Source of the DNA: Opitutales bacterium
Lineage (GTDB): Bacteria > Verrucomicrobiota > Verrucomicrobiia > Opitutales > PNEW01
Length of the DNA: 64,000 nt
Reading direction: 5' to 3'
Assembly (NCBI GenBank): GCA_965197745.1
Contig: CBDANS010000007.1
Coordinates: 1,984,001-2,048,000 of the forward strand
The notes beneath the pieces were generated by a model, which ran no database searches, had not been told where the DNA came from, and saw nothing but the letters and a program-made list of their open reading frames with translations. Of this stretch, positions 7,632-34,680 are shown piece after piece. Both the position numbers and the translations under genes were made by a program. Position 1 is the stretch's first letter; each line of letters starts with the position of its first letter.

Positions 7632-7659
7632 AGTAAATCAATTGTATTCCAACGTAAGA

Positions 7660-9123: not shown

Positions 9124-9345
9124 AAGATGAAATAGTATGAAGATCTTTTAATTATAAACTGTAACTTTCGGTGGTTCTATAATATTATTCAGAACTTAAT
9201 TATAAAACCCACGCGAAGCTGAATTACATTTTCACCGATATATCCATATCTAATATACTACAGGACAAAGACCGTTAAGGATAATGGGGCGTAATCTGTT
9301 TCCTCTTTATAAATAAAAGATCGAATATATATTCATAACTGATAA

Positions 9346-9756: not shown

Positions 9757-9758
9757 CT

Positions 9759-11021
9759 TTAAGGGCCAATAGTATCTATATCTATCCACGACATTAGGGC
9801 GTCCGGGATTTTAATCTTCCCATCTGCGCCAAGATTATTTTCAAGGATGGCCGCGATGACACGCGGGATCGCCAGTCCTGAACCATTGAGAGTGTGCACA
9901 AACCGTGTATCTCCACTTTGATCGCGGAAACGAATAGCAGCACGGCGGGCTTGGAAATCAGTAAAATTACTACAACTGGATACCTCCAGCCACCGTTTCT
10001 GTCCGGGTGCCCAGGCTTCTATGTCATATTGTTTGGTGTGTGGAAATCCTAACTCACCTGTGCACATAAGCAGAATGCGGTAGGGTATCTTTAATTTCGC
10101 GAGTAAGTTCGCTGCATGATCACGCAACTTTTCCAATTCCTCGAAACTGGTTTCCGGATGTGCCCATTTAACGAGTTCTACTTTATCAAACTGGTGAACG
10201 CGATTGAGACCTCTCACTTCCTTACCATAGCTGCCCGCTTCACGACGAAAACAAGGGGTATACGCACAGTGATAAATAGGGAGGCGATCTGAATTGATTA
10301 TTTCATCGCGATAAAAATTTGTTAAGGGGACTTCGGAAGTCGGAATGAGGTAAAATTCACCTCGTTCGGTCTGATACATAAGCCCCTCTTTATCGGGTAA
10401 CTGCCCGGTTGCAGTAGCACTGTCAGCATTGACGAGAAGGGGCGGTATCAACTCGACATAACCGGCTTTGTTCGCCTCATCGAGAAAAAAGCTGACCAGC
10501 GCCCTTGAAAGTTGCGCCATCTCTCCGTAAAAAAAAGGAAACCCGGCACCGGTAACTTTTACCCCACGCGCAAGATCGACATGTTGTTTAAACCAGGGAA
10601 TGTCGTAATGGGGTATGGCATGAGGAACAGTCTCCGATTCTCCCAAGGTTTTTACGACCTCATTGTCACCTTCGTTATCACCCTCAGGAACAGAATCGTG
10701 GGGCAGGTTGGGAATTGTCATCATAGCTTCCTGCCATGAAGATTCCGATTTCTGTTGTTGCGATTGCAGCTCTTTAACCTGGGTTGAAAGAATTTTAAGT
10801 TCTTTTACCTTTTCAATGAATTCAGGCGACCCTTTGTCCAGCTTGGCCATTTCGCTATTCGCTGCTTTTTGGCCGGCGCGCGTAATCTCCGCATCGGCGA
10901 TTATCTTACGACGCTTCTTATCAAGAGAGAGGATATTATCCAGGTCACATTCAAATTTTTTTTTGCGAACACCTTCACGAACTAGATCCGGATTCTCCCT
11001 TAGCAACTTAATATCGATCAT
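9759..11021 (-). CDS. serS: Serine--tRNA ligase
   Basis: N-terminal coiled coil, LIPTSEVP, FRREAGSYG, EVSSCSN, HTLNGSGLA. Confidence 0.97.
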   Translation of the reverse strand: MIDIKLLRENPDLVREGVRKKKFECDLDNILSLDKKRRKIIADAEITRAGQKAANSEMAKLDKGSPEFIEKVKELKILSTQVKELQSQQQKSESSWQEAMMTIPNLPHDSVPEGDNEGDNEVVKTLGESETVPHAIPHYDIPWFKQHVDLARGVKVTGAGFPFFYGEMAQLSRALVSFFLDEANKAGYVELIPPLLVNADSATATGQLPDKEGLMYQTERGEFYLIPTSEVPLTNFYRDEIINSDRLPIYHCAYTPCFRREAGSYGKEVRGLNRVHQFDKVELVKWAHPETSFEELEKLRDHAANLLAKLKIPYRILLMCTGELGFPHTKQYDIEAWAPGQKRWLEVSSCSNFTDFQARRAAIRFRDQSGDTRFVHTLNGSGLAIPRVIAAILENNLGADGKIKIPDALMSWIDIDTIGP

Positions 11022-11101
11022 AGTTTATTCGAATAATAGCGTCTAATGATGAAGTCGAAATTGTATTCTACCCAAGGTCAAGGAAACTATAGAAATGCTC
11101 T

Positions 11102-12046
11102 TTATTGCCTCAGTGCTTTAAGAACGGTTTCACATACAACATTTACCCCTACCTTCTTCAAATTACCTTCAGGGGCTTGAACCAGATGGTGACCAGGATA
11201 GTCAAGGGGATAGGGCCCAAACCGCTCGGGTGGTGTTGGACCGTATAGCCCTACCAGGGGGATACCCAGAGCTGCGGCCAGATGAATAGGCCCGCTGTCA
11301 TTGGCAACGATGAGTGCTGCCTTGGAGATTAATAGAGCCAACTCGTCAATCCTGGTATCACCCCTGATGTTGTAACATCGATCATTTAAAACCGTCGTCG
11401 GTGTATCCCCTTTGGAAGACCCGCAAAATATTATAATCCTATCGTCTTTTTCTTTTAATAATACTTCCGCGAGCGAATTAAACCCGCCCCACTCTTTTTC
11501 GGCTCGTCGGCTTTCAGGAAATAAGAGAATAGGATTTTCTTCGAGCAACTTCTGAGGAATATTTATCATATTAATATTTTTAAATTGTAATTTCCCTTTT
11601 AACTGTGGCTCGCAATTTAGAAGGGGAAGAAATTGCAGAAGAATTTCAATGGCATGGGCGTTTCTACCTCCCACCGGTAAGGAAGCCTTTTTACTATAAG
11701 CAAAATGAGCAAATTCCCTTGCGTCGCTGCGACCGAGCTTATGTTTGGATCGCGAAAAATAAGTCATCAACCCTGACCGCGCTAGACCCTGGAGATCGAT
11801 CACTGCGTCATACTCACGACTCCGAATTTCTTTGAGGAGGCCGATAAATTTCCGCCAACCACCGTGCCGTTGATAAATAATAGTCTCGTCAACAGTACTG
11901 CAAATATTCACTAAAGGAGCGAATATGTCACGCACTACCCAACTTATGCGACACCCTGATACTTGTTCACGCAAACTTTGGACCACCTGTAGTCCATGCA
12001 CTATATCACCCATAGATGAGGGCTTTATGATTAGAATATCTGGCAT
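11102..12046 (-). CDS. GT9 family LPS heptosyltransferase (WaaC-like)
   Basis: IIKPSSMGDIVH, DLQGL, NDSGPIHLAAALG. Confidence 0.88.
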   Translation of the reverse strand: MPDILIIKPSSMGDIVHGLQVVQSLREQVSGCRISWVVRDIFAPLVNICSTVDETIIYQRHGGWRKFIGLLKEIRSREYDAVIDLQGLARSGLMTYFSRSKHKLGRSDAREFAHFAYSKKASLPVGGRNAHAIEILLQFLPLLNCEPQLKGKLQFKNINMINIPQKLLEENPILLFPESRRAEKEWGGFNSLAEVLLKEKDDRIIIFCGSSKGDTPTTVLNDRCYNIRGDTRIDELALLISKAALIVANDSGPIHLAAALGIPLVGLYGPTPPERFGPYPLDYPGHHLVQAPEGNLKKVGVNVVCETVLKALRQ

Positions 12047-12175
12047 CTGGAGTGTTTTCGTGCTAAAGAGCAGCTTTTATTATATGAATTGTGATCCGCG
12101 CTTGATATTATTAAATGACTGCGGAATCTAGAATAAACTCATCTTAACTCAATTGTCTTTTTCGAGTTAATTATA

Positions 12176-14077
12176 GTGTTTCTGCTTATTTTAAAAACTG
12201 TGGGCTGGATCCTGGCCTTCCTTCCGGAAGGTTTTGTCCGGATAATGTGCGCGTTCTTGGGAAACTTCTTTTTTTTTACCGCTTCCGGGAAGCGAAAAAT
12301 AATCCTCTCTAATCTCCACCATGCTTATCCCCATAAACCATCGTCATGGCACCGTAATATCGCCCTTGAGAGTTGCCGCAGGATGATTGAAATGGGGGCA
12401 TTTGCCCTCGCTTCTCCCTGGTTTGATGAAAAACGCGTAGCCAGAATATTAACCGTCCCGGAGGCGTCATTAACGATTTTGAATCAGGCAAAAGGATCTA
12501 TGCCGAGAGGTGTCGGCTATATCCCCCATTTCACATTGACTGAAAGTCTTATTATGATTTCTGTTGTCGTCCCCGGTCTTCCCTCCAGGGGCGCAATATT
12601 TCGGCCACTGGGGAATAAAACATTGGACGATTGGATTAAGAGAACCCGTGAACGGTTTGGTTTTAATTTATATTCACGGAAAAAAGGATTCCATCAGGCT
12701 TTACGATTAATCCGCGAAGGGGGATGGGTTAATGTCCTATTTGACCAGAATGCCGGGCTCAGCGGTGCGGTTATCACCTCATTTCAACGTGTTGCTTCAG
12801 CCACTATACTGCCGGGTCTGATGGCAAAAAAGCTGCAGGTACCCATGGCCGTTTTTTATGCTAAGCGGACCGCATTTTGGCGAGCACAGTTTCACGCTCA
12901 ACTTTTGACCTGCGATAAAGAACCCATAAACGCCACACTGGAAGCTAATGCCTGGCTGGAAAAATATTTAAGTAGCTCCGACGATGCCTGCGCCGACTGG
13001 CTATGGGTTCACGATCGTTGGAAAAATCAGGACATGCCGGCCAGGCGATTTGGCCTCACGCAGAAAAAAAACTGGCTTCAAAATAGCCTCAATTATTATG
13101 GCTGGTCATCCCTCCCACGAAAAACACGTTTCTGGGTACGAATGCCAAACTGGTTGGGGGATGTGATAATGGCATTGCCGCTCATTCGGGCATTAAGGAG
13201 AGGACGCCCAGACGCTGAAATTACCCTCGTTGTAAAAGCGGATTTCATTCCCTTGCTTAAAAAATTTAAAGTGGGAGACAAATTCATTGCCCTTCCTCTC
13301 AGAAAGGATCTCTATTTCTCATATTTCAAGTCACTGCGTAATTTTTACGCGGATACTTATATCCTTTTTACCAATTCTCTAAGGGGAGATCTCGAAGCGT
13401 ACCTGACCGGATGCCCGCAGCGTTTTGGCATGATTCGACGGGGGAAATGGCGCCCTTTTCTTACCCATGCCTGGAATATTCCTCAGGATATTGACGAAAC
13501 CCAACATCATCAGACACGTGTATGGGAAAAGTTTCTGCACAATTTTGGCCTGAATGAACAATTGGATTATACCCCCTTTGACGCAAAGCTAACTAATAGT
13601 GGTGATGATTTTAATGTCGGATTAATCTGCGGGACAGAAAACGAACCACAAAAACGCTGGCCCTTAAAATATTGGCGTGAGCTGGCAGAAAAATTACTTG
13701 GCGATTATCCCAAAGCAAAAATATATCTTTTTGGCACCGATCGCGACCGGCAGTTAACACAACCTTTAGCCGATGGATTATCTACGGACCGGATTACGGG
13801 TCTCGCTGGTAAGACAAATTTAATAGAACTTACGGATAAAATGCGGGAGTGCAGTCTAATCGTCTGTAACGATACCGGAGGCATGCACCTGGCAAATGCT
13901 CTCGGTGTATCGTTAATCGCTCTATTTGGCCCAACCAACCCCTTAAGGACAGGTCCCATTTATGACACGCCTTTTCACATCCAACAACCCCCAAACTGCC
14001 TGCCCACAGGGGGATCTCCGCTTGAAAAAATAGATCCTGCGCGTGTAATTTCTCTCGTTCACAGCACCCTGGATTGA
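12176..14077 (+). CDS. Fusion of lipid A acyltransferase (LpxL/HtrB-like) and GT9 heptosyltransferase (WaaF-like)
   Basis: N-half has H(x4)E, DQ and W.W.H.RWK motifs; C-half has RMPNWLGDVIMA, KRWP and NDTGGMHLANALG. Confidence 0.82.
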   Translation: MFLLILKTVGWILAFLPEGFVRIMCAFLGNFFFFTASGKRKIILSNLHHAYPHKPSSWHRNIALESCRRMIEMGAFALASPWFDEKRVARILTVPEASLTILNQAKGSMPRGVGYIPHFTLTESLIMISVVVPGLPSRGAIFRPLGNKTLDDWIKRTRERFGFNLYSRKKGFHQALRLIREGGWVNVLFDQNAGLSGAVITSFQRVASATILPGLMAKKLQVPMAVFYAKRTAFWRAQFHAQLLTCDKEPINATLEANAWLEKYLSSSDDACADWLWVHDRWKNQDMPARRFGLTQKKNWLQNSLNYYGWSSLPRKTRFWVRMPNWLGDVIMALPLIRALRRGRPDAEITLVVKADFIPLLKKFKVGDKFIALPLRKDLYFSYFKSLRNFYADTYILFTNSLRGDLEAYLTGCPQRFGMIRRGKWRPFLTHAWNIPQDIDETQHHQTRVWEKFLHNFGLNEQLDYTPFDAKLTNSGDDFNVGLICGTENEPQKRWPLKYWRELAEKLLGDYPKAKIYLFGTDRDRQLTQPLADGLSTDRITGLAGKTNLIELTDKMRECSLIVCNDTGGMHLANALGVSLIALFGPTNPLRTGPIYDTPFHIQQPPNCLPTGGSPLEKIDPARVISLVHSTLD

Positions 14078-14135
14078 TATTCCTTACCTTATTTTCATCT
14101 TAATATCTGAGCACCCTTCGAATATGCGTTAACCA

Positions 14136-14966
14136 ATGTCGGAGTCCATAAAAGGTAAAGAAGAAGTCATGATTCGATCATGCTTGCTATGCGGCGCAGA
14201 TAATCATACCTGCGCACCTGGACCTTATTCGCATGATACCTGGATGGTTAAGACCTGTCCGCAGTGCTCATTTACCTACCTTGAAAATGCACCTTTCTAC
14301 CAACTGCTGGATAAACAGTTAGCATGGGAGAGAACCTCCCATATGGAATCAGACCGACGGGTAATAGCCCGCCCCCGCGGAAGACGAATGAGCGAGTATA
14401 TGAAGCAATTTCGCAGACAGGTTTTGAAAAGAGATAAATTAGGCTCCTGGATAAAACAGTATATTCTTCCCGGAAATGTTCTGGATATTGGCTGCGGAAC
14501 CGGACACGTCTTGGAAATGTTGCCTGAATCATACCAACCTTATGGCATTGAAATTTCCGATCACCTTGCCCAAAGCGCCCGGAAAAGGTTAGCGAATCGC
14601 GGTGGTAACATCATTCACGACAACGCTATTGAAGGCGTAAAAATGTTTGCTCATGACTTTTTTACCGGAATTTTAATGAGCGCATTTTTGGAGCATGAAT
14701 CGAATCCCGCAGAGCTCCTTAAGGATTTATATCCTACCTTAAAAATGGGCGGCAGAGTAATCATCAAAGTCCCTAATTTTGCCTGCTGGAACCGCAGGGT
14801 TATGGGTAAACATTGGTGTGGGTTCAGATATCCTGACCATGTTAACTATTTCACCCCGTCGACGCTTAAACGTTTAGTCTTGGATACCGGATATCAAATT
14901 CTACGGTTTTATTTTTTGGATCGGTTTCCATTGAGTGATAATATGTGGATGCTTCTCCAAAAATAA
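14136..14966 (+). CDS. Class I SAM-dependent methyltransferase with N-terminal CxxC pairs
   Basis: VLDIGCGTG motif I, FLEH..NP, CLLC and CPQC. Confidence 0.85.
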   Translation: MSESIKGKEEVMIRSCLLCGADNHTCAPGPYSHDTWMVKTCPQCSFTYLENAPFYQLLDKQLAWERTSHMESDRRVIARPRGRRMSEYMKQFRRQVLKRDKLGSWIKQYILPGNVLDIGCGTGHVLEMLPESYQPYGIEISDHLAQSARKRLANRGGNIIHDNAIEGVKMFAHDFFTGILMSAFLEHESNPAELLKDLYPTLKMGGRVIIKVPNFACWNRRVMGKHWCGFRYPDHVNYFTPSTLKRLVLDTGYQILRFYFLDRFPLSDNMWMLLQK

Positions 14967-15104
14967 GAACCGCGGCCAAATCACAAATTCAAGAGCCCTT
15001 GAATGCCCGCTTAATCGCTCATCTAACAGGGGTTTGTCAGCTTTATAAATGCGTGACAATTAACTGATTCAGCAATTATAGTGTTTGCTTAAATTATTCG
15101 ATCA

Positions 15105-16823
15105 GTGAAAAAACTGCTTCCTTATTTCTCCTTACTTAAACCGGTAAAATGGCATTTTATAGGCGCGCTTATATGCGGGCTCATTTATGGAATATCCAGT
15201 GGTTTTGGCCTGCCATTTATGAGTCATAAAGTTTTTCCCCTTATCTTTGGCGATAATCCTCCCTCTGATAAGATGCTATTTTTCGCGGTTGCTTATCTTC
15301 CTGCTGTTTTCCTCATTCGTAATACGAGCGGATTTTTCAATGCTTACCTCATCGGTTACTGCGGAGTGAGTGTATTAGAAGCTATTCGACTGAAGGTATT
15401 CACCAAACTTCAATCGCTATCTCTGGATTTTTTTGAAAATCATAAACCCGGTGATCTTCTCAGCCGAACAATGATCGATACTAACCAGGTTCAAACAGCT
15501 GTCGTAGGCGTTTCAAACGATCTCATAAAACAACCGGTTACTTTTCTTGGCGCCATGGGTGCGCTTTTTTATCTTTCCATTCAAAACAGTCAACTGATCT
15601 TTATATTTTTCAGTCTAATGATTGTTCCCATTGTTGTTTTCCCCATCCGTTTTATCGGACGAAAACTTTATATGAAAGCATTGGCCATGCAGGAAGAAAT
15701 GGGATCAGTGACTGACCTCGTAAGCGAAAACTTAAGCGCGGTGCGTGAAGTGCGCGCATTTTCACTGGAGAACAGACAGATTGAATCTTTTTTAAAAACT
15801 ATCCGATCTTTGTTTAAAATGCAGCTCAAAGTAATCAAATATGCGAAGTCATTATCGCCTTCCATTGAATTCGTCAGTTCACTCGGTGTCGCCATCGCTA
15901 TTATTTATGCCGCTAAAATGCGCATCTCTTTGGAAGAGGTAATCGCTCTCATTTTCGCTCTCTATTTGTCTTATGATCCCATTAAAAACATTGGGGTAAT
16001 TAACAACGAATTAAAGAAGGGGCTGGCTTCATTAAGACGAATTGAAGATATCATTAATACTCCAGACACCGTTATCGATCGTCCCGGGGCTCAAATGATC
16101 GAAGCCATTACCGGACAGATTTCATTTGAAGTAGTCAATTTCAGCTATAGTGAAGAATTGGTTTTGCGAGACATCAGTTGTCAACTGGAGCCGGGAAAAG
16201 TCCACGCTTTAGTGGGGCCTAGTGGCGCCGGTAAAACAACATTCGCTAACCTTGTGCTCCGTCTTTACGATATAGAAAAAGGTTCTATTACCTTGGACGG
16301 GAAAGACTTGCGCGATATAAAAATAGCCGGTTTACGCAGGAATATCGCCCTGGTTCCGCAAGATCCCGTGTTATTTAATGATACCGTATATAATAATATC
16401 CTTCTTAGCCGACCCGACGCGGAAAAAGAAGAAGTGCATGAAGCGGCGAGAAAAGCTTACGCTCACCTCTTTATTGATTCATTTGAGCGCGGTTATGATA
16501 CCATTGTCGGGAGCCGTGGAACACGTCTGTCGGGAGGACAGAAGCAGCGCGTTGCCCTGGCCAGGGCTTTTCTTAAAGACGCCCCCATCCTTATCCTTGA
16601 TGAAGCGACATCTTCACTGGACACGGAGAGCGAAAATAAAATTCAGCAGGCACTCGAACAACTCGTGCGCGGAAAGACCGTTATTATTATTGCCCATCGA
16701 TTCAGCACAATTCAAATGGCAGACCGCATTCTGGTCTTTGATCAAGGTCAATTGATCGCCACCGGGAGCCACGATATTCTTATAAAAACTAACGATCTTT
16801 ATGCCAATCTATACGCCCGGTAA
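15105..16823 (+). CDS. MsbA-like ABC exporter (fused TMD and NBD)
   Basis: GPSGAGKT, LSGGQKQR, ILDEATSSLD; located beside LPS genes. Confidence 0.88.
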   Translation: MKKLLPYFSLLKPVKWHFIGALICGLIYGISSGFGLPFMSHKVFPLIFGDNPPSDKMLFFAVAYLPAVFLIRNTSGFFNAYLIGYCGVSVLEAIRLKVFTKLQSLSLDFFENHKPGDLLSRTMIDTNQVQTAVVGVSNDLIKQPVTFLGAMGALFYLSIQNSQLIFIFFSLMIVPIVVFPIRFIGRKLYMKALAMQEEMGSVTDLVSENLSAVREVRAFSLENRQIESFLKTIRSLFKMQLKVIKYAKSLSPSIEFVSSLGVAIAIIYAAKMRISLEEVIALIFALYLSYDPIKNIGVINNELKKGLASLRRIEDIINTPDTVIDRPGAQMIEAITGQISFEVVNFSYSEELVLRDISCQLEPGKVHALVGPSGAGKTTFANLVLRLYDIEKGSITLDGKDLRDIKIAGLRRNIALVPQDPVLFNDTVYNNILLSRPDAEKEEVHEAARKAYAHLFIDSFERGYDTIVGSRGTRLSGGQKQRVALARAFLKDAPILILDEATSSLDTESENKIQQALEQLVRGKTVIIIAHRFSTIQMADRILVFDQGQLIATGSHDILIKTNDLYANLYAR

Positions 16824-17243
16824 TATTAGAAAAATGTGCTCGGCAAAAATCAGATTGGGAGAATTATGATAAATAGGTAGGATTTCGATCACTCCCTTCG
16901 GTATAATCTCAATTCATATCGCTGCCGTATCTCAATCTGCTCCGCCTGAAGCCTGGCGCGTAAAGTTTGCCCTCCATATTTCAGATTAGTGTCCGGCAAG
17001 TCACTATTTGATCGGTCTTTGACTCCCATAAACCTTGTAACTTCAGCATCGGGAGTTATTTCCGTTGCGACCATCGAAGAAGAATTCACTCCGATGAAAT
17101 TATTCCAAGAGTGATCGGCCCCGGCGACAGGTTTTCAATAAAAAATAAAGCCATTAAATAATTTATCCAAAAATAAATTTATACTTCATGAAATTTTCTA
17201 TTTTTTTATGCCTCATAAAATAATATTACGCATAAAGTTTATT

Positions 17244-17259
17244 TGACAAGAAATTGTCA
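17244..17259. promoter_or_regulatory. Palindromic operator-like site TGACAA-N4-TTGTCA overlapping a TTGACA -35 box
   Basis: Perfect 6-bp inverted repeat ~40 bp upstream of the 17298 gene; no clean -10 found. Confidence 0.3.
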
Positions 17260-17297
17260 GGATAGTTTTCCAACTAGAATAATTAACCCTTAATAAT

Positions 17298-19279
17298 GTG
17301 AAGATTGTGTCTTTCACAAATTTGTTAGAATTCTTAATTGTCTCAATTTTATTTCCTGCTCTCCTCACTGCCATTCCTCAAGATCTGGAAGTGTTCACAG
17401 ATTTCGAGGACATCAGCGGCGATGGAGATTTTTTTATCGGACAGGAACCCAACAGGGTTAGGCTGGTTGGTTTCACGGTCGAGATCTTAGAGGATTCTGC
17501 ACTACTGCACTCCGGAACCAAAGCGATAACCCTAGGGCCCGGACAAGAAGGGAGGATTATCTCAGAAAGAGGAATTCAATTTATCGAATTCTATGCGGGT
17601 GAGAGCACGGGGGCTGGCAGAATAGAGCTCAGAGGTGTGCTCAATCTCATTGATTTTAATAAAGAATCCAATGTAGGAGAGGGAGCAGACCGTCAAGCGA
17701 TCACCCTCATTGGCGACGAAGGTGTTGTCGAAGGATTGCCAGCAGATATCCACCCCGATGCCAATCCCCCCCTCTATAGCTTTGTTGCCGACAGCGGTAT
17801 TTTTCTTGATGAAGATGATTTTAATTTCCTGGGAGGAATCACAGAAGTGAAGGTCTTGAATGTAACAGGAAAATTCTCCCTCGATGATCTGGGCTTCACC
17901 CTGACTGACTTCCCGTCAAATAACACAGTTTACAGCACGTTTAGCGAATTCGGAGTAGGGGAAGGAATGTCAGAGCCATTTGTTCTTGGGACCTCACCTC
18001 ATACGGCTTCTTTTCAAGGAGGGTTTATCATATTTGTAGGTTCTGGTAACGCCGAATATGTGCGATCGCAACCTCATTCTTATGCCGTATTTAATGGGGG
18101 AGAAGCAACCATCACCTTTGAAACACCCGCTTATGAAATTGATTTTTTTGGAGCCACGGTAGTGGCTGCAGGAAGCACTGATCCCGATGGCTCAATTGAA
18201 GTATATGATACAAACGATACCTTACGCGCAACTTTTAGGAATCTAGAAGGAGATATAAAAGCTGAGTTCAAACCCGACTTCATCACCATAAATGCAGATG
18301 ATATAGGAGCTCCGGGCGGCATCAGCAGGATAGTGATAAAGGACGATCCTAATATCAATCCAAGTTTCAGTCGTACTTCAGTCGACGATTTTGGTTTTAC
18401 TCCTATCGGTTTTCCGGGCACAGGGTCTGAGAGCCCCCTCTCCGTGCCTCTTGTCCTCAATGGATCAGGTCTCATTGCCGGAGAAAACATTCAACATCCT
18501 AACGGAAACATATTCGACCAGGTACTGCTCACAGGAGAATCTATTCAGCTTCAGGCAAAACCGGGGCAGATTACCCGTGTCTCCTTCATGGATGAAAACG
18601 AGGACATAGTGCAGGTAGAGTTTTCGGGTGCCGGCACCTTTACCGTAACCCTTGACCCGGCCACTTTCTTACCCTCGGCTCTCCCCCCGCGTTACAACCA
18701 GGAAGTGATGTATGTGACAGGCAAACCGAGTGTGGTCATCGAAGAAGCGGACTCGAGTACTTTTTTCAGCATCTTCACGGTGGGTAAAATCAACGCCGTA
18801 AACCAGGCACTGTTCCCCGAGGGACAAGTCTACGATGCCAAGGTGGACGCCACCCTGGTGCAGGTAATCAACTCCACAGGTATGGGGGGATGCAACTATC
18901 GAACACCGTCTTTAGCGGAAGCACCGGGGAGATAGGCGTGGATGCACGTGGAGTCGCGATCGCAGTACGACTAACGATAGGAGACATCGATGCCAGTGGC
19001 GATGCAGTACCACACCTTATATTCGAAGAGGGTTCCTTCACCGTACCTGCCGGCAACCCCGGGTTGAGAATCACGGGAGGAGATCTGGAACAATCTAATG
19101 GTGCTTCGATCGTAGTCGCGGAGAGCGGATCGACGACTCCAGGATTCGAGACCATAATTACCCAGAACAACTTCAAATCCGACAACACCCCTCAACCAAC
19201 ACAGATTATTGATGCAACATTCACCAATGAGGATAATGAGGTGATTTTTGTTTCGGTGGATCCAATAACCATCGAGTAA
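17298..19279 (+). pseudogene. Secreted paralogue 1 (variable N-terminal modules plus conserved C-terminal domain), frameshifted in a G6 run at 18884-18889
   Basis: ORFs 17298-18935 and 18890-19279 together align to the paralogues at 49392 and 53213. Confidence 0.8.
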
Positions 19280-19414
19280 TCCTCTAAAGGGTTCCAGGTT
19301 ATACCCTGGCTAATCAAAACCCTCCGCGTTTCAGAGCAATCTATAATACTAAGCTCAACCTGGGTTGGTATTAAAATCTCCTTGCAGAAGAAATTTCCGT
19401 ATTACCCATACAAG

Positions 19415-20677
19415 CTAAATCCCGCTGAGACGCTGGATGATACCTATGATAGGTAAAAAAAGAGCAACTACGATAAACCCGATGACCAGCGCGAGAATGA
19501 TTATCATAAGTGGCTCGAAAATCGCAGTAAGACTAACCACTTTGCGGTCCACATCTTCATCGTAATTGTCAGCTATACGGTTCAACATCGCGGGGAGATC
19601 ACCTGTTTCCTCTCCCACCATTATCATTCCAGATACCACGGGCGGAAAAACGTTTACCTCTTCAAGTGCCACCGCGATGCTCTCGCCATCAAGCACACAG
19701 TCATGAACATAATCGAGAGAGTCTCTGATGAATTGATTCTTAATAACACTGCTGGTAAGAGTAAATGATTCGATAAGCGGGACCCCGCTGGAAAGAAGGG
19801 TTCCCAATGTCCGGGAAAATCGAGCAATAGTAATTTTACACAATAGATCGCCAATATAAGGCACCCTGAGACTGAACATATCGATAAAACGAGCGATAGA
19901 ATGAAACGTGATGATAACCTTTATCGCTATCATCACCGTGGCAATAATTACTGATATCAATACAAAATAATTCTGAAAACAGCTACTCATGTCGATCACG
20001 AATTGAGTGGGCGCCGGTAGTGGCGCGCCGTTTAACAGTTCCTGGTATATACTTCGAAATCTTGGAACAATAAAACCGATGAGCAAAGTCACAATGAGAG
20101 TAGCTATTGTTAATACGATCACAGGGTAGATCATGACGGTAATTGCCGCATGCTTGAATCTTCGACTTTTTTCCATAAAAAGTGAAAGCTGCATGAGGAC
20201 TTTATCCATAGCACCTCCAGCTTCACCTGCTTTTATCATATTAAGAAACAGGTTATCGAATATTTTAGGATAATGCGCCATACTCTCCGCAAGGGTAGAA
20301 CCCGAACGAATGTATTCGGCGAGCTCCCCAATTGTAGTACGCAACGCACCATTACTTTCCTGTTTATATATCAATTCCAAACTGCGTAACAACGGCACCT
20401 TAGCTTGAAGGAGCGTGGCAAGCTGTCTTGTGAAGACACTCATATCTTCACGACATACCGAATTGCCGTAGATCATTCCTCTTTTTTGTCGCTTTTTTAT
20501 TCGTTTGTTGAATTCACATGTCTCTTCTCCATCACTCTTTTTTGCAGGAGTAACACTCGTGGGAATCAGATCCATACTGGAGACTCTGCTTCGAGCTTCA
20601 TTTTGTGAAGATGCTTCTAATCTTCCCGAAAGATACTTCCCCTGCTCGTCTATCGCACTGTAAATATACCTGGTCAT
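19415..20677 (-). CDS. pilC: Type IV pilus/T2SS platform protein (PilC/GspF family)
   Basis: FTRQLATLLQA.VPL, AGEAGG, GEETGDL, two T2SSF domains. Confidence 0.9.
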   Translation of the reverse strand: MTRYIYSAIDEQGKYLSGRLEASSQNEARSRVSSMDLIPTSVTPAKKSDGEETCEFNKRIKKRQKRGMIYGNSVCREDMSVFTRQLATLLQAKVPLLRSLELIYKQESNGALRTTIGELAEYIRSGSTLAESMAHYPKIFDNLFLNMIKAGEAGGAMDKVLMQLSLFMEKSRRFKHAAITVMIYPVIVLTIATLIVTLLIGFIVPRFRSIYQELLNGAPLPAPTQFVIDMSSCFQNYFVLISVIIATVMIAIKVIITFHSIARFIDMFSLRVPYIGDLLCKITIARFSRTLGTLLSSGVPLIESFTLTSSVIKNQFIRDSLDYVHDCVLDGESIAVALEEVNVFPPVVSGMIMVGEETGDLPAMLNRIADNYDEDVDRKVVSLTAIFEPLMIIILALVIGFIVVALFLPIIGIIQRLSGI

Positions 20678-20690
20678 GCGATAGAAGTAT

Positions 20691-21971
20691 TTAAGTAGCT
20701 TTTAATACCTCTTCAACGGTAGTAATGCCATTTATTATCGCACGAATCCCCTCTTCACGAAGTGTTATTAATCCCATTCTTTTAGCATGTTCCCTCAGGT
20801 CCTTGGTCGATTTATTCATACCTGTCATTTCTCGCAGGGAATCATTTAAAACAAGCATTTCAAAAAGTCCCGTGCGACCTCGGTATCCCGTGCTATTACA
20901 TTCTAAACACCCAGCTCCATAAGTAAAATTGCGGTCTATAAACTTATCCCCACCCAACTCGAGCAGACGCATGAGATCCGGACGTGGGGAATAATCCTTT
21001 CTGCATTCCGGGCAGATAGAGCGGATCAATCTTTGAGCGAGAACGGATTCGAGGGAAGCCGCAACGAGATAGGGTTCCAGACCCAAATCGATTAACCGGG
21101 TAATCGCTCCTACCGAGTCTATGGTATGGAGCGTACTGAGAACAAAATGGCCCGTAAACGATGCTTGAACCGCGATACTCGCCGTCTCCAAATCTCGAAT
21201 TTCACCAACCATGATTATATCCGGATCCTGGCGTAAAAATGATCGAAGTGCTCGAGCAAAGGTTAAATCAATGAGTGGATTTATGGTCACCTGCATAAGA
21301 CCTTCAATTTGATACTCGACTGGATCCTCTGCCGTAAGAATCTTCTTTTCCTGTTCATTTACTTCCCGCAAGACACTGTACAAAGTCGTTGTTTTTCCGC
21401 TTCCAGTAGGTCCCGTTATGATGAATATTCCACTGGGACGCACTGCGAGACTCCTGACGTTTCCCAACACTTCTTCGGGCATGCCAAGCTGATTAAGGCT
21501 CAAGTTTACTAAAGATTTATCCAAAACGCGGAGGACCAGGCTTTCTCCAAACTGCGTGGGTAATGTTGATACACGCAAATCCACGGATCGTCCATCAACG
21601 GTCATCATATAATGACCATCCTGTGGTATTCGTTTCTCCGCGATATCGAGGTCAGCGAGTACCTTTATCCGTGAGATTACCGGTAAGGCCAAATGTTTTG
21701 GGGGTGGGGCCATTTCGTAGAGAACGCCATCTATACGAAATCGAATGCGAAATTCATCTTCAAAAGGTTCAAAGTGGATATCGGATGCCTTCTCTTTGAT
21801 CGCCTCTAAGATAACAAGATTTACATAATGAATAATGGGCTCCTCGTTCGCCACCTCGATCAATTCTTCACGGGTCGCTCTCTTCCCTGACCCTTCTTTA
21901 AGCTCAGGAAAGGTTACAGACAATGGCGACTCATTCCTGGAATCCATTGTGCCATCGCTGGCTTCGATCAT
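20691..21971 (-). CDS. PilB/GspE-family ATPase lacking the N-terminal domain
   Basis: [26 protein letters not shown], CxxC-CxxC; only 426 aa. Confidence 0.85.
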
Positions 21972-22046
21972 CTTATATAGATAATCGGGTTAAAGACGAA
22001 ATTATTAATAGCTAAAGAGGGATAAGCTCTGTGTGTAAACAATGAG

Positions 22047-22172
22047 GGTTGAACACGCTACCTGCCTGTCTTCAGTAGTCCCGAAAATACGGGACGAAAG
22101 CTGTTCCCGAGCGGTTCTTTAATTTAGCAGCTACGAGAAAGAAGAAGCGTGCCGGGGAAAGCTCTCTCCTCC
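22047..22172. repeat. Degenerate REPIN-like element with ~40-bp micro-insertion
   Basis: Arms resemble those at 49270-49344 (shared GAAGAAGCGTGC); insert CCTGCCTGTC..GTCCCG..CGGGAC. Confidence 0.5.
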
Positions 22173-22194
22173 ATATCCCTAAACTTGATAACCC

Positions 22195-23283
22195 TTAATA
22201 GGTCGTGACCTCAGCACCAGTCTCCAGAAGCCTTTTTCGCATTTCTTCAGGATCCTGGGCCTTTTCTATAGCTTGGTCAGCGTCAATTTGATCGGTATTG
22301 ACCAGGCTCATCAGATGCGCGTCCATGGTTATCATTCCCAATTGTGAACCGGTTTGAATATCCGAAGTAATACGATAAGTTTTGTTATCACGGATAAGGG
22401 CTCCGATCGAAGTCGTAGCTACCATAATTTCAAACCCGGCAATACGCCCTCCCCCATTCTTTTTGCAAAGGACCTGTGAAATAACGGCACCGATAGACGA
22501 TGCAAGTTGGGTGCGTATCTGGTCCTTTGTATGAGAGGGAAAAGCATCAACGATTCTATCGACAGTACGAGCCGCGCCGGTAGTGTGCAGGGTCCCAAAA
22601 ACAAGGTGATCCGTTTCAGCAGCGGTAACCGCGGCTTCAATCGTTTCCAGGTCGCGCATTTCACCGACCAGGATGATATCCGGATCTTGACGTAAAGCGC
22701 CACGTATAGCATCAGAAAAAGACATCACATCGGTGCCTACTTCGCGCTGAGTAACAATGCATTTCTTGTGCCCGTGATAGTATTCAATAGGGTCTTCAAT
22801 AGTAATAATATGCCCATCGCGATTTTCATTCACCCAGTTAATCATCGAGGCGAGGGTCGTTGATTTTCCTTAACCTGTAGGTCCGGTGACAAGAATAAGT
22901 CCGCGCGGACGAACCAGCAAATCCTTCACCATGTCAGGTAACCCTATTTGTCGTAAGCCAAACATATCGTTGGGAATCTGCCGTAGGACAATCCCGTAAT
23001 TACCTTTTGCTTTCATCACGCTCACGCGAAATCGAGCTTTATCGAGGAAAGCAAACCCAAAATCTGCGCCACCGTCGGTTTTTGCTTTTTCCTGATGAAA
23101 ATCAGAAGCGATGGACTGCATCAGCGCTTCTGTATCCGGTGGCGTAAGATTGGGGCCATCAACCGGTGTCATCCCACCTGACATGCGAAGAGTTGGAGAT
23201 TGTCCCACTTGAATATGAAGATCAGAGGCCCCCTGATCCACCATCAATTCCAAAAGTTCATTCATCTCATAACCATTATCCAT
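22195..23283 (-). pseudogene. pilT: Type IV pilus retraction ATPase PilT with in-frame TAA in Walker A (22870-22872)
   Basis: ASDLH, GPTG*GKST, EDPIE, ALRQDPD, GEMRD; both ORF pieces are in the same frame. Confidence 0.9.
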
Positions 23284-23430
23284 GACTTCAACTCCTCTTT
23301 GATTATTTTATCATCACCAGCTAATAAAGAATCGTTTTAATATAAGCCCCTATTGAAAAAGCGCAAGCTTGGAAATAATGTTGAAACATCCTGGATCAAA
23401 GAGCCACTCCATCGGGTTTATTAAGTTAAA

Positions 23431-25077
23431 TTAAGTGTCGTTAACAACCGTAGCTGAGAGCACTTCTTCAAAGGTGGTTATTCCTGCTCTAACCTTTCCT
23501 TTCCCGTCTTCACGCATGGCGCGCATTCCACAGGCTAGTGCTTTATGTCGAAGATCCGCAATTGTCGCCTGCTCATAGATCATCTGTTGAATGGCTTCAT
23601 CCACTACCATTATTTCGAATATTCCGCTACGGCCATAATAGCCAATGCCATGGCAATGGGTACAACCCGTTCCTTTCATAAAAACAGCCGAAGGAATGCG
23701 TCTCTCCATCAATTCAAGCATGCTTAATTCCGCATCAGTTGGTTGATATTGTGCCTTGCACTCTTCACAGTTTAGACGCACCAGTCGTTGAGCCACAACT
23801 CCATGTAAAGAAGCTGAAACAAGAAATGGTTTTATCCCGAAATCTAAAAGCCGCGATATGGCGCTCGGTGCATCATTTGTATGGAGTGTAGAAAATACCA
23901 AATGCCCGGTAAGCGACGCGTTTATGGCAATTTCCGCAGTTTCCATATCTCGAATTTCTCCTATCATGATGATATCAGGTGACTGTTGCAGGATTGCGCG
24001 TAAGGCTGTGGAAAAGCTTATCCCCGTCTGGGAAGCCACTTGGACCTGGTTGACGCCTTTCAATTGGTATTCGACAGGATCTTCTATTGTAATGATCTTG
24101 CGATCGGGATGATTAATGAAATGGAGACAGGAATAAAGGGTTGTCGTTTTACCCGATCCTGTAGGACCGGTAAGCAGGATTAAACCATCGGACTTAGTAA
24201 TAAGGCCTTCAAGTATTTCCCGGTCATCACTGAATAAACCAAGTTCAGAAAGATCAAGACTTTGTCTTTCTCCATCGAGAACACGCATTACCATACTCTC
24301 TCCGTTTGTGGTAGGAATAGTAGAGACACGCAGATCTATTTTTTTACTACCCCTTTTAAATTGGATACGTCCATCCTGCGGAACTCTTTTTTCCGCAATG
24401 CTGATTTTTGCCATGATTTTCAAATGCGCAATAATCGACAACTGGAGTCGTTTGGGCGGGCTTTCTATTTCCCTTAGCACCCCATCAATTCGTAATCGGA
24501 CGCGGAAACGTTTTTCTAATGGTTCCAGGTGTATGTCAGATACCCGCCGTTTAATAGCCTCTGAAATCAGCCAATCTACATATCTGTTAATCGGTGCCGC
24601 CTCACTCTCGAAGTTATTCCTCTCATCGATGTTAATCCCGGTATCCTTATATTGGTCAATGGCTGCAACTGAGACCTTTGGGGAATAAGATCTGCTATTA
24701 CTTCCCGATTGATAACCCCTATAATATTTTACTATGGCTTCATTGATTGCGTGCCTGGGGGCAAGTACCGGCTCAACGGCAACACCGGACAGGTAACTGA
24801 TACTATCCAGTGTTTCGAAATCTATTGGATCGCTAATTGCTATCTCCAGAACCTGCCCCCGTAATCGCAGGGGGAATACACATAATAATTCCGCGAGGTG
24901 GCGAGAAATTAATTGTAATGTCTCGGGAGATGGATCCCATGCTGAAAGATCGAAAACACTCAAGTCATACGCTTCTGCTAATACTTCATTCGCCGCCTGA
25001 GAATTAATATCGTCATTCTCAAAACATTCCTAAGAGCCCAGCTGATTTATGACTGAAGTTCTTATTTATGACCCCAT
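23431..25077 (-). pseudogene. pilB: PilB/GspE ATPase; open from TTG 24963, with an upstream in-frame extension to ATG 25077 containing two stops
   Basis: [30 protein letters not shown] 25066-25068 and TAG 25030-25032 in frame. Confidence 0.7.
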
Positions 25078-30457: not shown

Positions 30458-31180
30458 ATGAGCGAGTCGTACCCCTCTCCGCTGCGGCTGAGAGATATAG
30501 CAGTAAGTGAACGCCCACAGGAACGTTTAGAGAAATATGGCGCAACTTCACTGAGTGATACAGAATTATTAGCGATGATCCTGCGTAGTGGGAGTAAAAA
30601 CAGGAATGTTCTGGCCCTGTCCACCCACATTATTGCAGAGGCAGGATCACTTGCCGGTCTTCTCACCTGGAGGGAATCCGATTTTAGTAAAATGACCGGT
30701 ATCGGCAAAATTAAAGCTTTGCAATGCATGACAGTTATGGAAATTGCGCGTCGAATCCTTTCACATAATCCTAATACAGAGCCAACTTTCAATTCTCCCG
30801 ATGCGGTCTTTGAGCATTTTCGACCTATTACCGCAGGTATAGAAGTCGAGAAATTCTGGGTCCTTTGTCTGAACCGTAAAAACCGCCTTATCAAACGCGT
30901 GGAAACAACTTCAGGCACCGCTAACAGCAGCCTTGTTCACCCGAGGGAAGTCTTTCGTGAAGCCATATATTATAGTGCCTCTGCCATTATTTGTGTGCAC
31001 AATCATCCCAGTGGTGACCCTTCGCCGAGCAGTGCCGATATTCGCATTACCCGCCAACTCAAAGAAGCTTCAAAAGTCCTCTCCATTGACTTGCTTGATC
31101 ATATTGTCGTTGGGCAAGTAGCTGCGGATCCTAACGGAAACGGATTTTATAGCTTTGTTGAAGCAGGTCTTATTTCATAA
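30458..31180 (+). CDS. radC: RadC (JAB domain) protein
   Basis: ERPQERL, VHPREVF, HNHPSGDPSPSSAD, LLDH. Confidence 0.93.
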   Translation: MSESYPSPLRLRDIAVSERPQERLEKYGATSLSDTELLAMILRSGSKNRNVLALSTHIIAEAGSLAGLLTWRESDFSKMTGIGKIKALQCMTVMEIARRILSHNPNTEPTFNSPDAVFEHFRPITAGIEVEKFWVLCLNRKNRLIKRVETTSGTANSSLVHPREVFREAIYYSASAIICVHNHPSGDPSPSSADIRITRQLKEASKVLSIDLLDHIVVGQVAADPNGNGFYSFVEAGLIS

Positions 31181-31251
31181 CCCTCTGCATAATCCTGCAC
31201 CAAATTAAATAAAAAATCTTCGTCTGCCTCTGCCTCTTGTAGGTTACCCCG

Positions 31252-31543
31252 CGATGATAAGACAACCTTTTGAGTCCTTCCGAGAATGGGTCATCGTAAC
31301 ACGTCGGAGGAAGGACTGGAAAAAGCTTTCAACAGTGTCTACGGTTGAGAGTGCCAGGAACTCCCGACTCCTAATAAGAGGAGCCGGGAGCAAATCGGAA
31401 GAGTTCATTCTGCCTCTGGAACCCGCGTTAGCGGAGTTCAAGACGAAGCCTGGGAACTTCCGATCTAACCTGGCTAATCTCAAACAATTGAAAGAGCCCG
31501 GATTATACCCCCGCGAGCTCATCTTGACAAGACCGAGATAGCC
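31252..31543 (+). ncRNA. Putative IS110 bridge RNA with target- and donor-binding loops
   Basis: LTG TCTGCCTCT 31409-31417, RTG GACGAAG 31442-31448, LDG ACAATTG 31484-31490, RDG ACAAG 31527-31531, each in an internal loop closed by stems; 5' end inferred from the junction promoter. Confidence 0.85.
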
Positions 31544-32476
31544 ATGAATGAAAAAAAACACACCCTCATCGCCATAGATATAGCCAAAAACACCTTGCAA
31601 GTGCAAAGTGCAGAGCAAAGTTACGCTCTAAGCAACGACAAGTCGGGACTCAAAGAACTGCTCAAAGCCATAGGAAAGATGGATGCCCCCTTTGTGGTGT
31701 GCGAAGCCACAGGAGGCTACGAGCGCGCCTTGTTGAGCGCTTTGCATGAAGCGCAGATTGTGGTGTGCCTGATTAATCCTGCGCGCGTACGGGCCTTCGC
31801 CACGAGCGATGGCATCCGTGCAAAGACCGATAAGATCGATGCCAAGGTATTGCTGCGCTTTGCTCAGCAAAAGCAGTTGTCCCCAACAGCTCCCCCGACA
31901 CCCGAACAGCAACAGATGACTGCTTTACTGGATCGACGCCATCATCTGAGCGAACAGCTTGGCCGCGAGAAGAACCGCTTGCAGAACAGTCCCAAGAGCA
32001 TCCACCTTTCCATCCAACGCATGATCCGTTTCGTTGAGAACGAAATCGATCGCATCGACAAACAGCTGCGATTGCTCATCAACGAGAATGATCCACTGCG
32101 TGCGAAAGCCGAACTTATCGCTTCAGTCAAAGGAGTCGGTGAAGTGACGACTTGGACCCTCCTGGCTTATATGAGCGAAATGACTCATCTGGGCCGCAAT
32201 CAGTTGGTCGCTCTTGCCGGTCTGGCTCCCTATAATCGTGACAGTGGCAAGACCCATTCTAAGCGATCGATAAAAGGAGGTCGTGCCAAAGTCAGAAAAT
32301 GTCTCTATATGGCTGCTCGCACCGCGGCTCAACATAACCCCGTGATCAAACCTTATGTGCAGAGGTTAGTCGATCGGGGAATACCTTACAAATGTGCTCT
32401 CGTTGCGGCCATGAGAAAACTCCTTATTCATCTGCAGTCCCTTCTTAAAAAACATCAATTAGCTCTTGCTTCATGA
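31544..32476 (+). CDS. IS110 recombinase/transposase (DEDD RuvC-like plus Tnp20 domain)
   Basis: IDIAK, CEATG, KTDKID (DEDD); AGLAP...DSG serine motif; intact 310 aa. Confidence 0.95.
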   Translation: MNEKKHTLIAIDIAKNTLQVQSAEQSYALSNDKSGLKELLKAIGKMDAPFVVCEATGGYERALLSALHEAQIVVCLINPARVRAFATSDGIRAKTDKIDAKVLLRFAQQKQLSPTAPPTPEQQQMTALLDRRHHLSEQLGREKNRLQNSPKSIHLSIQRMIRFVENEIDRIDKQLRLLINENDPLRAKAELIASVKGVGEVTTWTLLAYMSEMTHLGRNQLVALAGLAPYNRDSGKTHSKRSIKGGRAKVRKCLYMAARTAAQHNPVIKPYVQRLVDRGIPYKCALVAAMRKLLIHLQSLLKKHQLALAS

Positions 32477-32674
32477 CACAATTGCTTCGTCCTCCCAGGT
32501 ATTTACAATAATATCAAGGTAGAACACGCTGCCTGACGGCCATAAACTTTGCGACGGCTGTTCCCTAGTGCGTTTATAGATGATAGCGCTACCGAGTCTC
32601 GCCACTTCGAGACAACATCTTCCAAAAGCACAAGAGACACAAAAAAGATCTTTAAGAAGTAGAAATACTCTTAT

Positions 32675-33020
32675 TGTCATTGCGAGCGGAGCGTGGCAAT
32701 CCAGGCAGATTCCGGTGACATATTTAAAACTGGTTAAAGTACAGTAATTAACTTCGGTTACGTCCACTGGATATTTATTTATTAATAAGGTGTGGCGCAC
32801 TGACTCAGGTTGATAGATTCACGAAACAATATGGAGGGACGCGCGGAACCGGTCGGCCATAGTCCACCCGCGACTGCGGGAAGGGACGACGTGGTGATCG
32901 CGTCCGCGCGTATTCATGCTAACCGATCCCCAACGGCCATGACCGAGCATGGCCCTCCAAAAATCTTCGTCTTCGTCAATGTCTCTCGGTAGCCACGTCG
33001 CGCTGCTCCTCGCAATGACA
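32675..33020. repeat. Palindromic element with TGTCATTGCGAG...CTCGCAATGACA ends enclosing a GGAG-footed REPIN (32833-32958)
   Basis: Perfect 12-bp terminal inverted repeats; inner GGAGGGACGCG..CGCGTCC and GGCCATG..CATGGCCCTCC arms. Confidence 0.65.
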
Positions 33021-33089
33021 CTAGGGAGGCAGACGAAGACGAAAATTAGGTGATCAGCCCATGTCTTAGTGTTATCAATCGTTGCTTCG

Positions 33090-33265
33090 GAATATAATTA
33101 ACCCTGCTATTCCGCTAACCAGCCTTTAGCGCGATCTACGGCACGACTCCAACCTTCCCGGTGTATTTTCATATCAGCTTGAATATAATTAACCCTGCTA
33201 TTCCGCTAACCAGCCTTTAGCGCGATCTACGGCACGACTCCAACCTTCCCGGTGTATTTTCATAT
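33090..33265. repeat. 85-bp direct tandem duplication (33090-33174 and 33181-33265) covering the glpK 3' end
   Basis: Identical copies separated by CAGCTT. Confidence 0.9.
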
Positions 33266-34680
33266 GATCGCGCCGTGATGAACCGCTGATTAATACTCCA
33301 GTGAGCAGCTATTTCATTTTGATTTTTCCAGTATCCCACCGCAATACCGGCAAGATAAGCCGCGCCAAGGGCTGTGGTCTCAATAACCCGGGGACGAAGA
33401 ACAGGAACTTGCAATAGATCGCTTTGAAATTGCATAAGTATATCATTGGCACAGGCACCGCCATCAACTCGTAATTCCTGAAGTTCGATTCCCGAATCCA
33501 ACTTCATCGCTTCAAGAACGTCGTAACTCTGATAGGCAATACTTTCAAGAGCAGCGCGTGCAATATGGGAAGCGGTCGTTCCTCTTGTCATGCCAACAAG
33601 GGTGCCGCGGGCGTAGGGATCCCAGTGAGGGGCCCCTAAACCTGAAAACGCGGGGACCAGGTAAACGCCATCAGATTCGGCTACTTTATTCGCCAATGGC
33701 TCAACTTCGGAAGCTTTTTCGATCAGCCCCAGTCCATCCCGCAACCATTGAACTACGGCTCCCCCCATAAAGACACTGCCTTCAAGCGCATACGTTATTT
33801 CATCCCCTATTTTCCAGGCAATGGTGGTTAATAGGTTATTCTTTGATACCACCGGGTCTTTTCCGATGTTTAAAAGAAGAAAACAACCCGTCCCGTATGT
33901 ATTCTTGGCCATTCCCGTTTTAAAACAACTTTGTCCGAAGAGAGCTGCCTGTTGATCACCGGCAATACCGGCAATAGGTGTTCCCTTGAGTTCAGTTAAC
34001 TGTTCGGTCTCCGCATAAACTTCACTGGAGGAGTGGACCTCAGGTAAAAGGGATGGTGGAATATTAAGTATTCCTAAAAGCTCTTCATCCCAGGCACCGG
34101 TATGTATATTAAAGAGAAGCGTACGTGAAGCATTGGTGGCATCCGTGATGTGTGTTTTCCCGTTGGTAAGCTTCCATATAATCCAACTGTCGACAGTTCC
34201 AAAAGCCAGCTTACCGCTTTCCGCTTTTTCCCTGGCGTCAGGAATATTTTCAAGTATCCATTTTATCTTTGTCCCGGAAAAATAGGGGTCTAAAAGTAAT
34301 CCTGTTTTCTTTCTGAATACTTTTTCTAATCCCTCTTCTTTGAGTGAAGCACAAATATCGGAAGTTCGGCGATCTTGCCAGACAATAGCATTGTATAGGG
34401 GGTCACCCGTCCGGCGATCCCACAGTATAGTCGTTTCACGCTGATTGGTTATTCCCATCGCGGCGACATCTTCTTTAAATATTCCCGCTTTTTTTGTCGC
34501 TTCAATGGCCACACTGCACTGCGATTTCCAAATCTCTTCGGGGTCGTGTTCCACCCACCCCGGTTTCGGGAATAGCTGTTTAATTTCTTTTTGAGCCACT
34601 GCCTTTATCAACCCGTCATGGTCAAAAAGAATGGCTCGCGAACTCGTCGTTCCCTGATCCAGCGCTAATATATATTTCAT
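33217..34680 (-). CDS. glpK: Glycerol kinase with frameshifted C-terminal tail
   Basis: [36 protein letters not shown]; the normal tail [11 protein letters not shown] is out of frame. Confidence 0.93.

Follow-up and report, generated by a model that had tools for sequence, protein, structure and literature searches.

A probably intact IS110-group insertion sequence with a predicted two-loop bridge RNA in an Opitutales bacterium

IS621, an IS110-group insertion sequence of Escherichia coli, encodes a recombinase that acts with a 177-nt bridge RNA, and RNA guidance has been demonstrated experimentally for this element (Durrant et al. 2024, PMC11208160; Hiraizumi et al. 2024, PMC11208158). As these papers describe it, the IS621 RNA is transcribed from a promoter that is rebuilt at the circle junction of the element. 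Hiraizumi et al. further describe a pseudo-symmetric RNA layout with "flipped-out A" nucleotides, list D11, E60, D102, D105, S241, and G242 of the recombinase as essential, and set out the concept of the handshake guide (PMC11208158). Bridge RNAs are predicted in 85.7% of the IS110 elements of ISfinder, with covariation over thousands of orthologues (Durrant et al., PMC11208160). Here, we describe positions 31238–32486 of a 64,000-nt stretch of DNA from an Opitutales bacterium (contig CBDANS010000007.1, positions 1,984,001 to 2,048,000 of the forward strand; hereafter, the window), which very probably constitute an intact IS110-group insertion sequence with a two-loop bridge RNA. An earlier note on this DNA had assigned the locus to the IS621-type bridge-RNA architecture, with a CT core and a 7+2+5 target, an assignment that is supported by the domains, ends, fold, guides, and covariation presented below. 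Coordinates without a contig prefix are window positions, and all features of the element are given on the + strand.

The sole long reading frame of the element (31544–32476, +) encodes an IS110-family recombinase of 310 aa. Similar to IS621, this protein is composed of an N-terminal RuvC-like DEDD domain (PF01548, DEDD_Tnp_IS110, 2.4e-23) and a C-terminal Tnp domain (PF02371, Transposase_20, 2.6e-19), and both matches exceed the curated cut-offs. The protein also matches the NCBIfam equivalog NF033542, "IS110 family RNA-guided transposase", with 206.9 bits against a cut-off of 140. Among solved structures searched with phmmer, the best match by sequence is the ISCro4 transposase (PDB 9t56, 5.1e-38, residues 8–300), which has the same domain layout but is distant in sequence and is known here under the name given by its depositors. 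The IS621 transposase (8wt6, 1.3e-37) is likewise a distant relative, with 133 bits over residues 9–300. In the alignment with 8wt6, D12, E54, D96, and D99 of the RuvC-like domain and the pair S234–G235 stand opposite D11, E60, D102, D105, and S241–G242 of IS621. By this alignment, the five catalytic residues of IS621 are conserved in the window recombinase, in agreement with the claim of the earlier note that the DEDD and serine motifs are intact. Elsewhere in the genome, two weaker PF01548 matches are present, at C5:436686-437126 (1.1e-9, in a 449-aa open frame) and at C6:564538-564885 (8.1e-6, under the cut-off). Both loci are unrelated to the four copies of the element described below, and the RNA covariance model R2, also described below, has no match near either.

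The boundaries of the element are defined by its flanks and by its other copies. On the left, host DNA reads TCTGCCTCT (31229–31237), the left target TCTGCCT followed by the CT core, and on the right, host DNA begins with the right target TCGTC (32487–32491). The insertion sequence itself starts with TGTAGGTTACC at 31238, opening TGTAGG, and ends with GACACAATTG-CT at 32486; CT is found at both junctions (31236–31237 and 32485–32486), and the insertion of 1249 bp includes one of them (32485–32486). As in IS621, the left end is long and the right end short: the left non-coding end spans 306 nt (31238–31543), whereas the right end, as read from the sequence and the copies, comprises 8 nt past the stop codon plus the CT core (32477–32486), with ACAATTG (32478–32484) directly before the CT. 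Because the right end is this short and the RNA lies upstream of the gene, the element belongs to the IS110 group and not to the IS1111 group. Members of the latter share the recombinase superfamily and the two-loop RNA logic but, as described by Durrant et al., encode their seekRNA or bridge RNA in a right end that is long and lies downstream of the gene (PMC11208160).

The genome from which the window is taken (4.45 Mb, seven contigs) contains four full-length copies of the element and one 40-nt fragment. Each of the four is preceded by TCTGCCTCT and followed by TCGTC; the farther flanks differ, except that two copies share a right flank. Copies whose flanks fail to match the loop sequences, which the earlier note had named among the findings that would speak against it, were not seen, as the other three copies carry the same flanks as the window copy. 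A paralogous empty site is available for the copy at C5:450297, the left flank of which aligns with C5:465721-465599 and the right flank with C5:465598-465400, directly adjacent and with no gap or overlap. Because the flanks abut at this site, the insertion comprises exactly 1249 bp, one CT included, and brought no additional duplication. The target TCTGCCT-CT-TCGTC that the earlier note had reconstructed by removing the element has a counterpart in which the two flanks are seen to abut. In addition, in four public sequencing runs from three studies, the element is assembled as a separate repeat contig (31236–32491), and in run X1, this contig has a depth of 73 compared with 15 for the left-flank contig (~5x).

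A bridge RNA of ~184 nt is predicted to be encoded by 31360–31543, and we infer that it is transcribed. Its architecture is reminiscent of that of IS621, comprising a 5′ stem-loop (31361–31390), a target-binding loop module (31394–31464), and a donor-binding loop module (31472–31543), the last of which ends directly before the ATG of the recombinase gene. Both modules adopt the same layout, in which an outer stem bulging one A encloses, in order, a 5′ loop strand, an inner stem-loop that likewise bulges one A, and a 3′ loop strand. In the target module, the loop is enclosed by ATCGGAAG-A-GTTC (31394–31406) and GAAC-CTTCCGAT (31453–31464), the bulged nucleotide of the outer stem is A31402, and the inner stem-loop (31419–31439) bulges A31435. 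In the donor module, the loop is enclosed by GGCTA-A-TCTC (31472–31481) and GAGA-TAGCC (31535–31543), the outer stem bulges A31477, and the inner stem-loop (31494–31520) bulges A31516. The single-A bulges in all four stems resemble the flipped-out nucleotides of IS621, an equivalence by position only. When 31358–31546 is folded alone, three parts are obtained, namely the 5′ stem-loop plus both modules, and 43 of the 49 drawn pairs have a probability of at least 0.5 in the thermodynamic ensemble. The 5′ stem-loop is present in the minimum-free-energy fold, and the fold of the left non-coding end has a z-score of −4.75.

Ahead of the RNA model, the left end contains a 121-nt leader (31238–31359) with two hairpins, one formed by AGTCCTTCC...GGAAGGACT (31273–31317) and the other, predicted by folding, by GCTTTCAAC...GTTGAGAGT (31325–31352). 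The stems of both hairpins are invariant in three sister lineages. Between sister elements, the left end is better conserved in nucleotides than the recombinase gene, with 36 differences in 306 nt compared with 84% identity in the coding sequence.

The RNA structure was first drawn by hand and then carried into two covariance models, as the earlier note had suggested for homologous left ends. The first, R1, was built from three sister sequences with the hand-drawn structure, and a search with it found the left ends of four distant relatives. The second, R2, recovers the same RNA in 38 of 65 related loci, each time as a + strand match upstream of the recombinase gene; five partial or weak minus-strand matches are found besides. 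The 5′ stem-loop corresponds to helix 1 of both models and shows compensatory changes. In the 43-row R2 alignment, 90.2% of the cells hold standard pairs, as opposed to 54.9% with shuffled partners and 35–44% when one side is slid by 1–3 columns, and all 46 helix pairs have changes on both sides; these counts are inflated, since the alignment was fitted to the model and its rows are related. The contrast with the slid controls is still large despite this bias. RNAalifold was also run on four close relatives and was set aside, as it returned a partly different long-range pairing with one covarying pair and the relatives hold too little variation. When R2 was searched against the whole genome for orphan bridge RNAs, just the four copies were matched.

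The two loops contain words that correspond to the target and to the ends of the element. In the target loop, the left target guide TCTGCCTCT (31409–31417) is identical to the left target plus core at nine of nine positions, and the right target guide GACGAAG (31442–31448) is the reverse complement of CT plus TCGTC at seven of seven. Similar to IS621, in which a 9-nt left and a 7-nt right target guide overlap at the core, the two guides jointly cover all 14 target positions, which bears out both the guide positions and the 14/14 match put forward in the earlier note. Among 200,000 shuffled versions of the 306-nt left end, five contained both target words and none contained all four guide words.

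In the donor loop, the left donor guide ACAATTG (31484–31490) is identical to the right end of the element (32478–32484) and is followed by AA. The right donor guide (31521–31531) is composed of AUCU (31521–31524), a 2-nt bulge, and ACAAG (31527–31531). By inspection, AUCU-UG-ACAAG with the UG bulged pairs with CTTGTAGGT of the circle junction through one G-U; the match is contiguous over the core and 3 nt, and it covers nine positions if the 2-nt bulge and one G-U are allowed. IS621 also has a discontiguous right donor guide, in which two U's are flipped out at the same place as the bulged UG here (PMC11208158). The donor arms would be read by the second loop, with the core read on one side only. 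Of the donor loop proposed in the earlier note, the words ACAATTG and ACAAG and the enclosing strands stand, and two details are refined: the left guide does not extend into the CT, and the right guide is discontiguous. Handshake positions are present as well. In the target-loop handshake guide (31449–31450), C31449 is complementary to the G at position 7 of the donor left arm, and in the donor-loop handshake guide (31532–31533), A31532 is complementary to the T at position 7 of the left target, so both positions are satisfied in the window element, as in IS621. On the level of sequence, the features that define an IS621-type system appear to be present, one of them in part, namely the left donor guide, which does not read the core.

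Comparison with related elements indicates that guides and flanks change together. The nearest protein relatives are from Opitutales genomes, OY829953.1 with 83% and 79% identity (10 copies) and OFTM35 with 74%, and the next are at most 41% identical; this is consistent with the Verrucomicrobiota host that the earlier note had thought probable. In OY829953.1, the left guide is TCATCGTCT, and the left flanks of the ten copies are TCATCGT-CT (four), TCATCGC-CT (five), and TCTTCGT-CT (one), of which four match the guide exactly and six with one mismatch; the right flank is TCGTC in nine of ten. With respect to the window element, three guide positions and the left flank are altered together, and the right guide and right flank are unchanged. 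In OFTM35, the guides (TCTTCGTCT and GAGGAAG) differ at two positions from the single observed site, TCTTCCT-CT-TCGTC. Three of the sister copies in OY829953.1 (L019–L021) look like decaying copies: the recombinase match takes 931 nt for 310 residues, implying a frameshift, and in L020, the leader has also gained an insertion of 14 nt and the inner stem of the target loop has lost 4 nt.

The same relationship is observed across the family, in lineages that include Babeliales, Chloroflexia, and proteobacterial and other genomes with quite different targets. On the right side, where the left donor guide, sought past the end of the gene, served as the anchor and 31 of 37 rows were usable, the right target guide is the reverse complement of the core plus flank at all seven positions in 15 of the 31 loci, and the mean match over the five non-core positions is 3.84, compared with 1.51 ± 0.20 (maximum 2.26) in 2000 permutations of the guides. 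On the left side, for which 23 of 36 rows were anchored, the mean match over the seven non-core positions is 4.83, a figure lowered by register slips in the fixed offsets, compared with 3.11 ± 0.21 (maximum 3.65) in 500 permutations. Complementarity at the two handshake positions is found in 30 and 24 of 36 rows, with permuted means of 17.5 and 12.9, and none of 5000 permutations was as high. The rows are kin, and these permutation figures therefore overstate independence. The covariation of guide and flank that the earlier note had proposed to look for is nevertheless found both in the sister lineages and in the family-wide tests.

Several observations weigh against the element being an intact bridge-RNA system. 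In naked RNA, the target guides are in part paired to one another (mean unpaired probability ~0.4), and the left donor guide, although it matches the right end at seven of seven positions, has AA in place of the CT core, unlike the description of IS621. A scan of 30500–33500 against Rfam gave no match at E <= 1. Consensus scans recognised no sigma-70-like promoter on the + strand or across the computed junction of the right and left ends, a further difference from IS621; the best candidate, at 8 of 12 positions, lies inside the left end. No circle junction or excised site was seen in the contigs of the four public runs, and contigs drop rare forms. Among the sister copies, L022 has two mismatches to its own guides, and the right flank of L018 is deviant. 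On the minus strand, a near-consensus sigma-70-like promoter (TTGTCA, 17 nt, TATAAT; 11 of 12 positions) is present at 31530–31502, opposite the donor loop and directed away from the recombinase gene; it may be due to chance.

The missing circle junction and the unrecognised promoter would also fit a genuine IS110 element with bridge-RNA anatomy that is no longer mobile, its four copies being a frozen remnant spread by duplication of repeat units. Consistent with such a spread, the copies at C5:450297 and C7:658016 have flanks that lie within locally repeated units, and the window copy and the copy at C7:1406281 have 90 nt of right flank in common (32487–32576 and C7:1407530-1407619, 97.8% identity; the left flanks differ), which is either a local repeat present at both targets or a co-duplicated flank. 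However, the left flanks of all four copies diverge beyond ~20 nt, and three right flanks diverge directly after TCGTC. The copies are also nearly identical, with at most two changes in 1249 nt separating any of the others from the window copy: T31458C, which falls in the first loop's outer stem, and A32383G, which changes I280 to M. The recombinase frame is open and the catalytic residues are intact in all four. Moreover, the element is absent from the paralogous unit at C5:465599, which dates the insertion after that duplication, and contigs cannot show rare forms such as a circle. We therefore consider an immobile remnant to be improbable.

The left end also holds a frame of 95 codons (31254–31541), and it could be argued that this frame codes for a protein and that the RNA features are secondary. 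No stop codon interrupts it in the window or in the sister copy L012, 86 codons are open in L022, and a stop-free frame arises in just 98 of 5000 shuffles of the left end. Against a coding function, the frame has no Pfam match, it is truncated in L022 by a 1-nt insertion, and the changed codons between sisters comprise 18 non-synonymous and 9 synonymous ones. The window–L012 differences fall on codon positions 1, 2, and 3 in the numbers 10, 12, and 14, whereas those of the recombinase gene amount to 37, 20, and 89. A coding role was rejected, since both codon-position bias and a family match are lacking, and this explanation is very unlikely. Still less credible is the proposal that the internal target and end words are DNA sites, either protein-binding subterminal repeats or decoys, rather than RNA guides: the stems of the leader hairpins keep their sequence in three sister lineages and do not covary there, but the words are located in loops between helices that covary at every modelled pair and lose their pairing on a one-column slide, and the protein is homologous to IS621, the RNA guidance of which is experimentally established.

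The intact bridge-RNA element appears to be targeted to a dispersed repeat of its host. The reconstructed 14-mer TCTGCCT-CT-TCGTC occurs at 16 further uninterrupted sites in the genome, compared with 0.03 expected, and 60 sites are found with at most one mismatch. All 16 exact empty sites lie outside open frames of at least 120 aa. The target sites are part of a dispersed intergenic pyrimidine-rich hexamer array with the consensus AATCTTCGTCTTCG-TCTGCCTCTTCGTC-TTCGTCC, and CTTCGTCTTCGTC alone occurs 75 times genome-wide, compared with 0.13 expected. At the window, the array is observed at 31217–31237 and 32487–32500. The element stands between a gene for a RadC-like JAB-domain protein just upstream (30458–31180; PF04002, 5.2e-42) and a convergent 487-aa frame (−, 33217–34680), and because it lies between the two, no gene is interrupted. 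In two genomes from a different genus of the same family, the hexamer motif is found just downstream of radC and the element is absent; the exact 14-mer was not found downstream of radC in the nearest genomes, in which radC is ~72–73% identical.

Some variation is observed around the target sites. All four occupied sites have a G three bases before the 14-mer, as do 3 of the 16 empty sites; the bases preceding the 14-mer are (T/C)GC(C/G) at occupied sites and TTCG at most empty ones. The G could be an extra determinant or could reflect chance, given a small sample in which two occupied sites are paralogous. An upstream GACGAAGACGGG, which would form a hairpin with the array, is seen by eye at ~10–12 of the 60 target-like sites. 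A second repeat, TTGTCATTGCGAG, is found to the right of the element at 32675 (+) and 33009 (−), an inverted pair ~330 bp apart, and has 99 copies in the genome compared with 0.13 expected. The summed contig depth at 32628–32755 reaches ~6,600–25,000 in four metagenome-like runs, compared with 4–70 elsewhere, a depth that marks this stretch as a short repeat common to many organisms or present in many copies.

By analogy with IS621, these parts would operate as follows. The bridge RNA would guide the 310-aa DEDD/serine recombinase, with the first loop reading the 14-bp site TCTGCCT-CT-TCGTC: the 5′ side of the target loop, identical to the left half plus core, would pair with the bottom strand, and the 3′ side, complementary to the core plus right half, would pair with the top strand. 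The second loop would read the joined ends of the element, ACAATTG-CT-TGTAGGT. The element would first excise as a circle, a presumed intermediate; the RNA would then hold circle junction and target together within a single tetrameric complex, and strand exchange would take place at the CT core, with no target duplication. Placement of the target inside a dispersed intergenic repeat would provide the element with many harmless landing sites. We further infer that the element may be currently active and programmable.

Similar to the target of the window element, that of IS621 lies in dispersed intergenic repeats, the REP elements (PMC11208160), but the window target is a pyrimidine-rich hexamer array rather than a REP palindrome. 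ISPpu9 and ISPpu10, IS110 elements of Pseudomonas putida, are likewise described as multi-copy elements whose insertion sites are identical copies of a repeat conserved in intergenic DNA (PMC12288879; bioRxiv 10.64898/2026.03.19.712850). According to these sources, their targets are REP or stem-loop-bearing sequences in which the target stem-loop adds specificity, whereas here a hairpin is absent from most of the 60 target-like sites. The main differences between the window element and IS621 are the distance between the two proteins, the extra 121-nt two-hairpin leader ahead of the RNA model, the reading of the core by the donor loop, the junction promoter, and the nature of the target repeat; in addition, the window element is known from sequence alone. 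A bolder proposal, which at present we hold to be doubtful, is that the Opitutales lineage represents a variant of the bridge system with extra parts, namely this conserved leader, which might serve as a third RNA module or control expression or excision, and a donor loop whose left side leaves the core unread, and that the guides of the sister lineages have been retargeted by 1–3 changes to neighbouring registers of one host hexamer repeat. If this were true, the guide shifts of the sister lineages would represent natural reprogramming in progress, in a host group where such systems are unstudied.

The element is a well-supported further case of the known bridge-RNA system and not a new mechanism, and knowledge of the mechanism is unchanged by it. 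A full-text search for IS110, bridge RNA, and Verrucomicrobiota returned no paper in the literature collection searched. What the element adds is a compact (310-aa), apparently intact bridge recombinase whose RNA, donor, and natural 14-bp target are fully specified, from a little-sampled, Opitutales-like host group of the Verrucomicrobiota. Together with its sister elements, a clean case from nature of a guide that changes along with its target, it should help to mine orthologues and to understand the choice of "safe" repeat targets by such elements.

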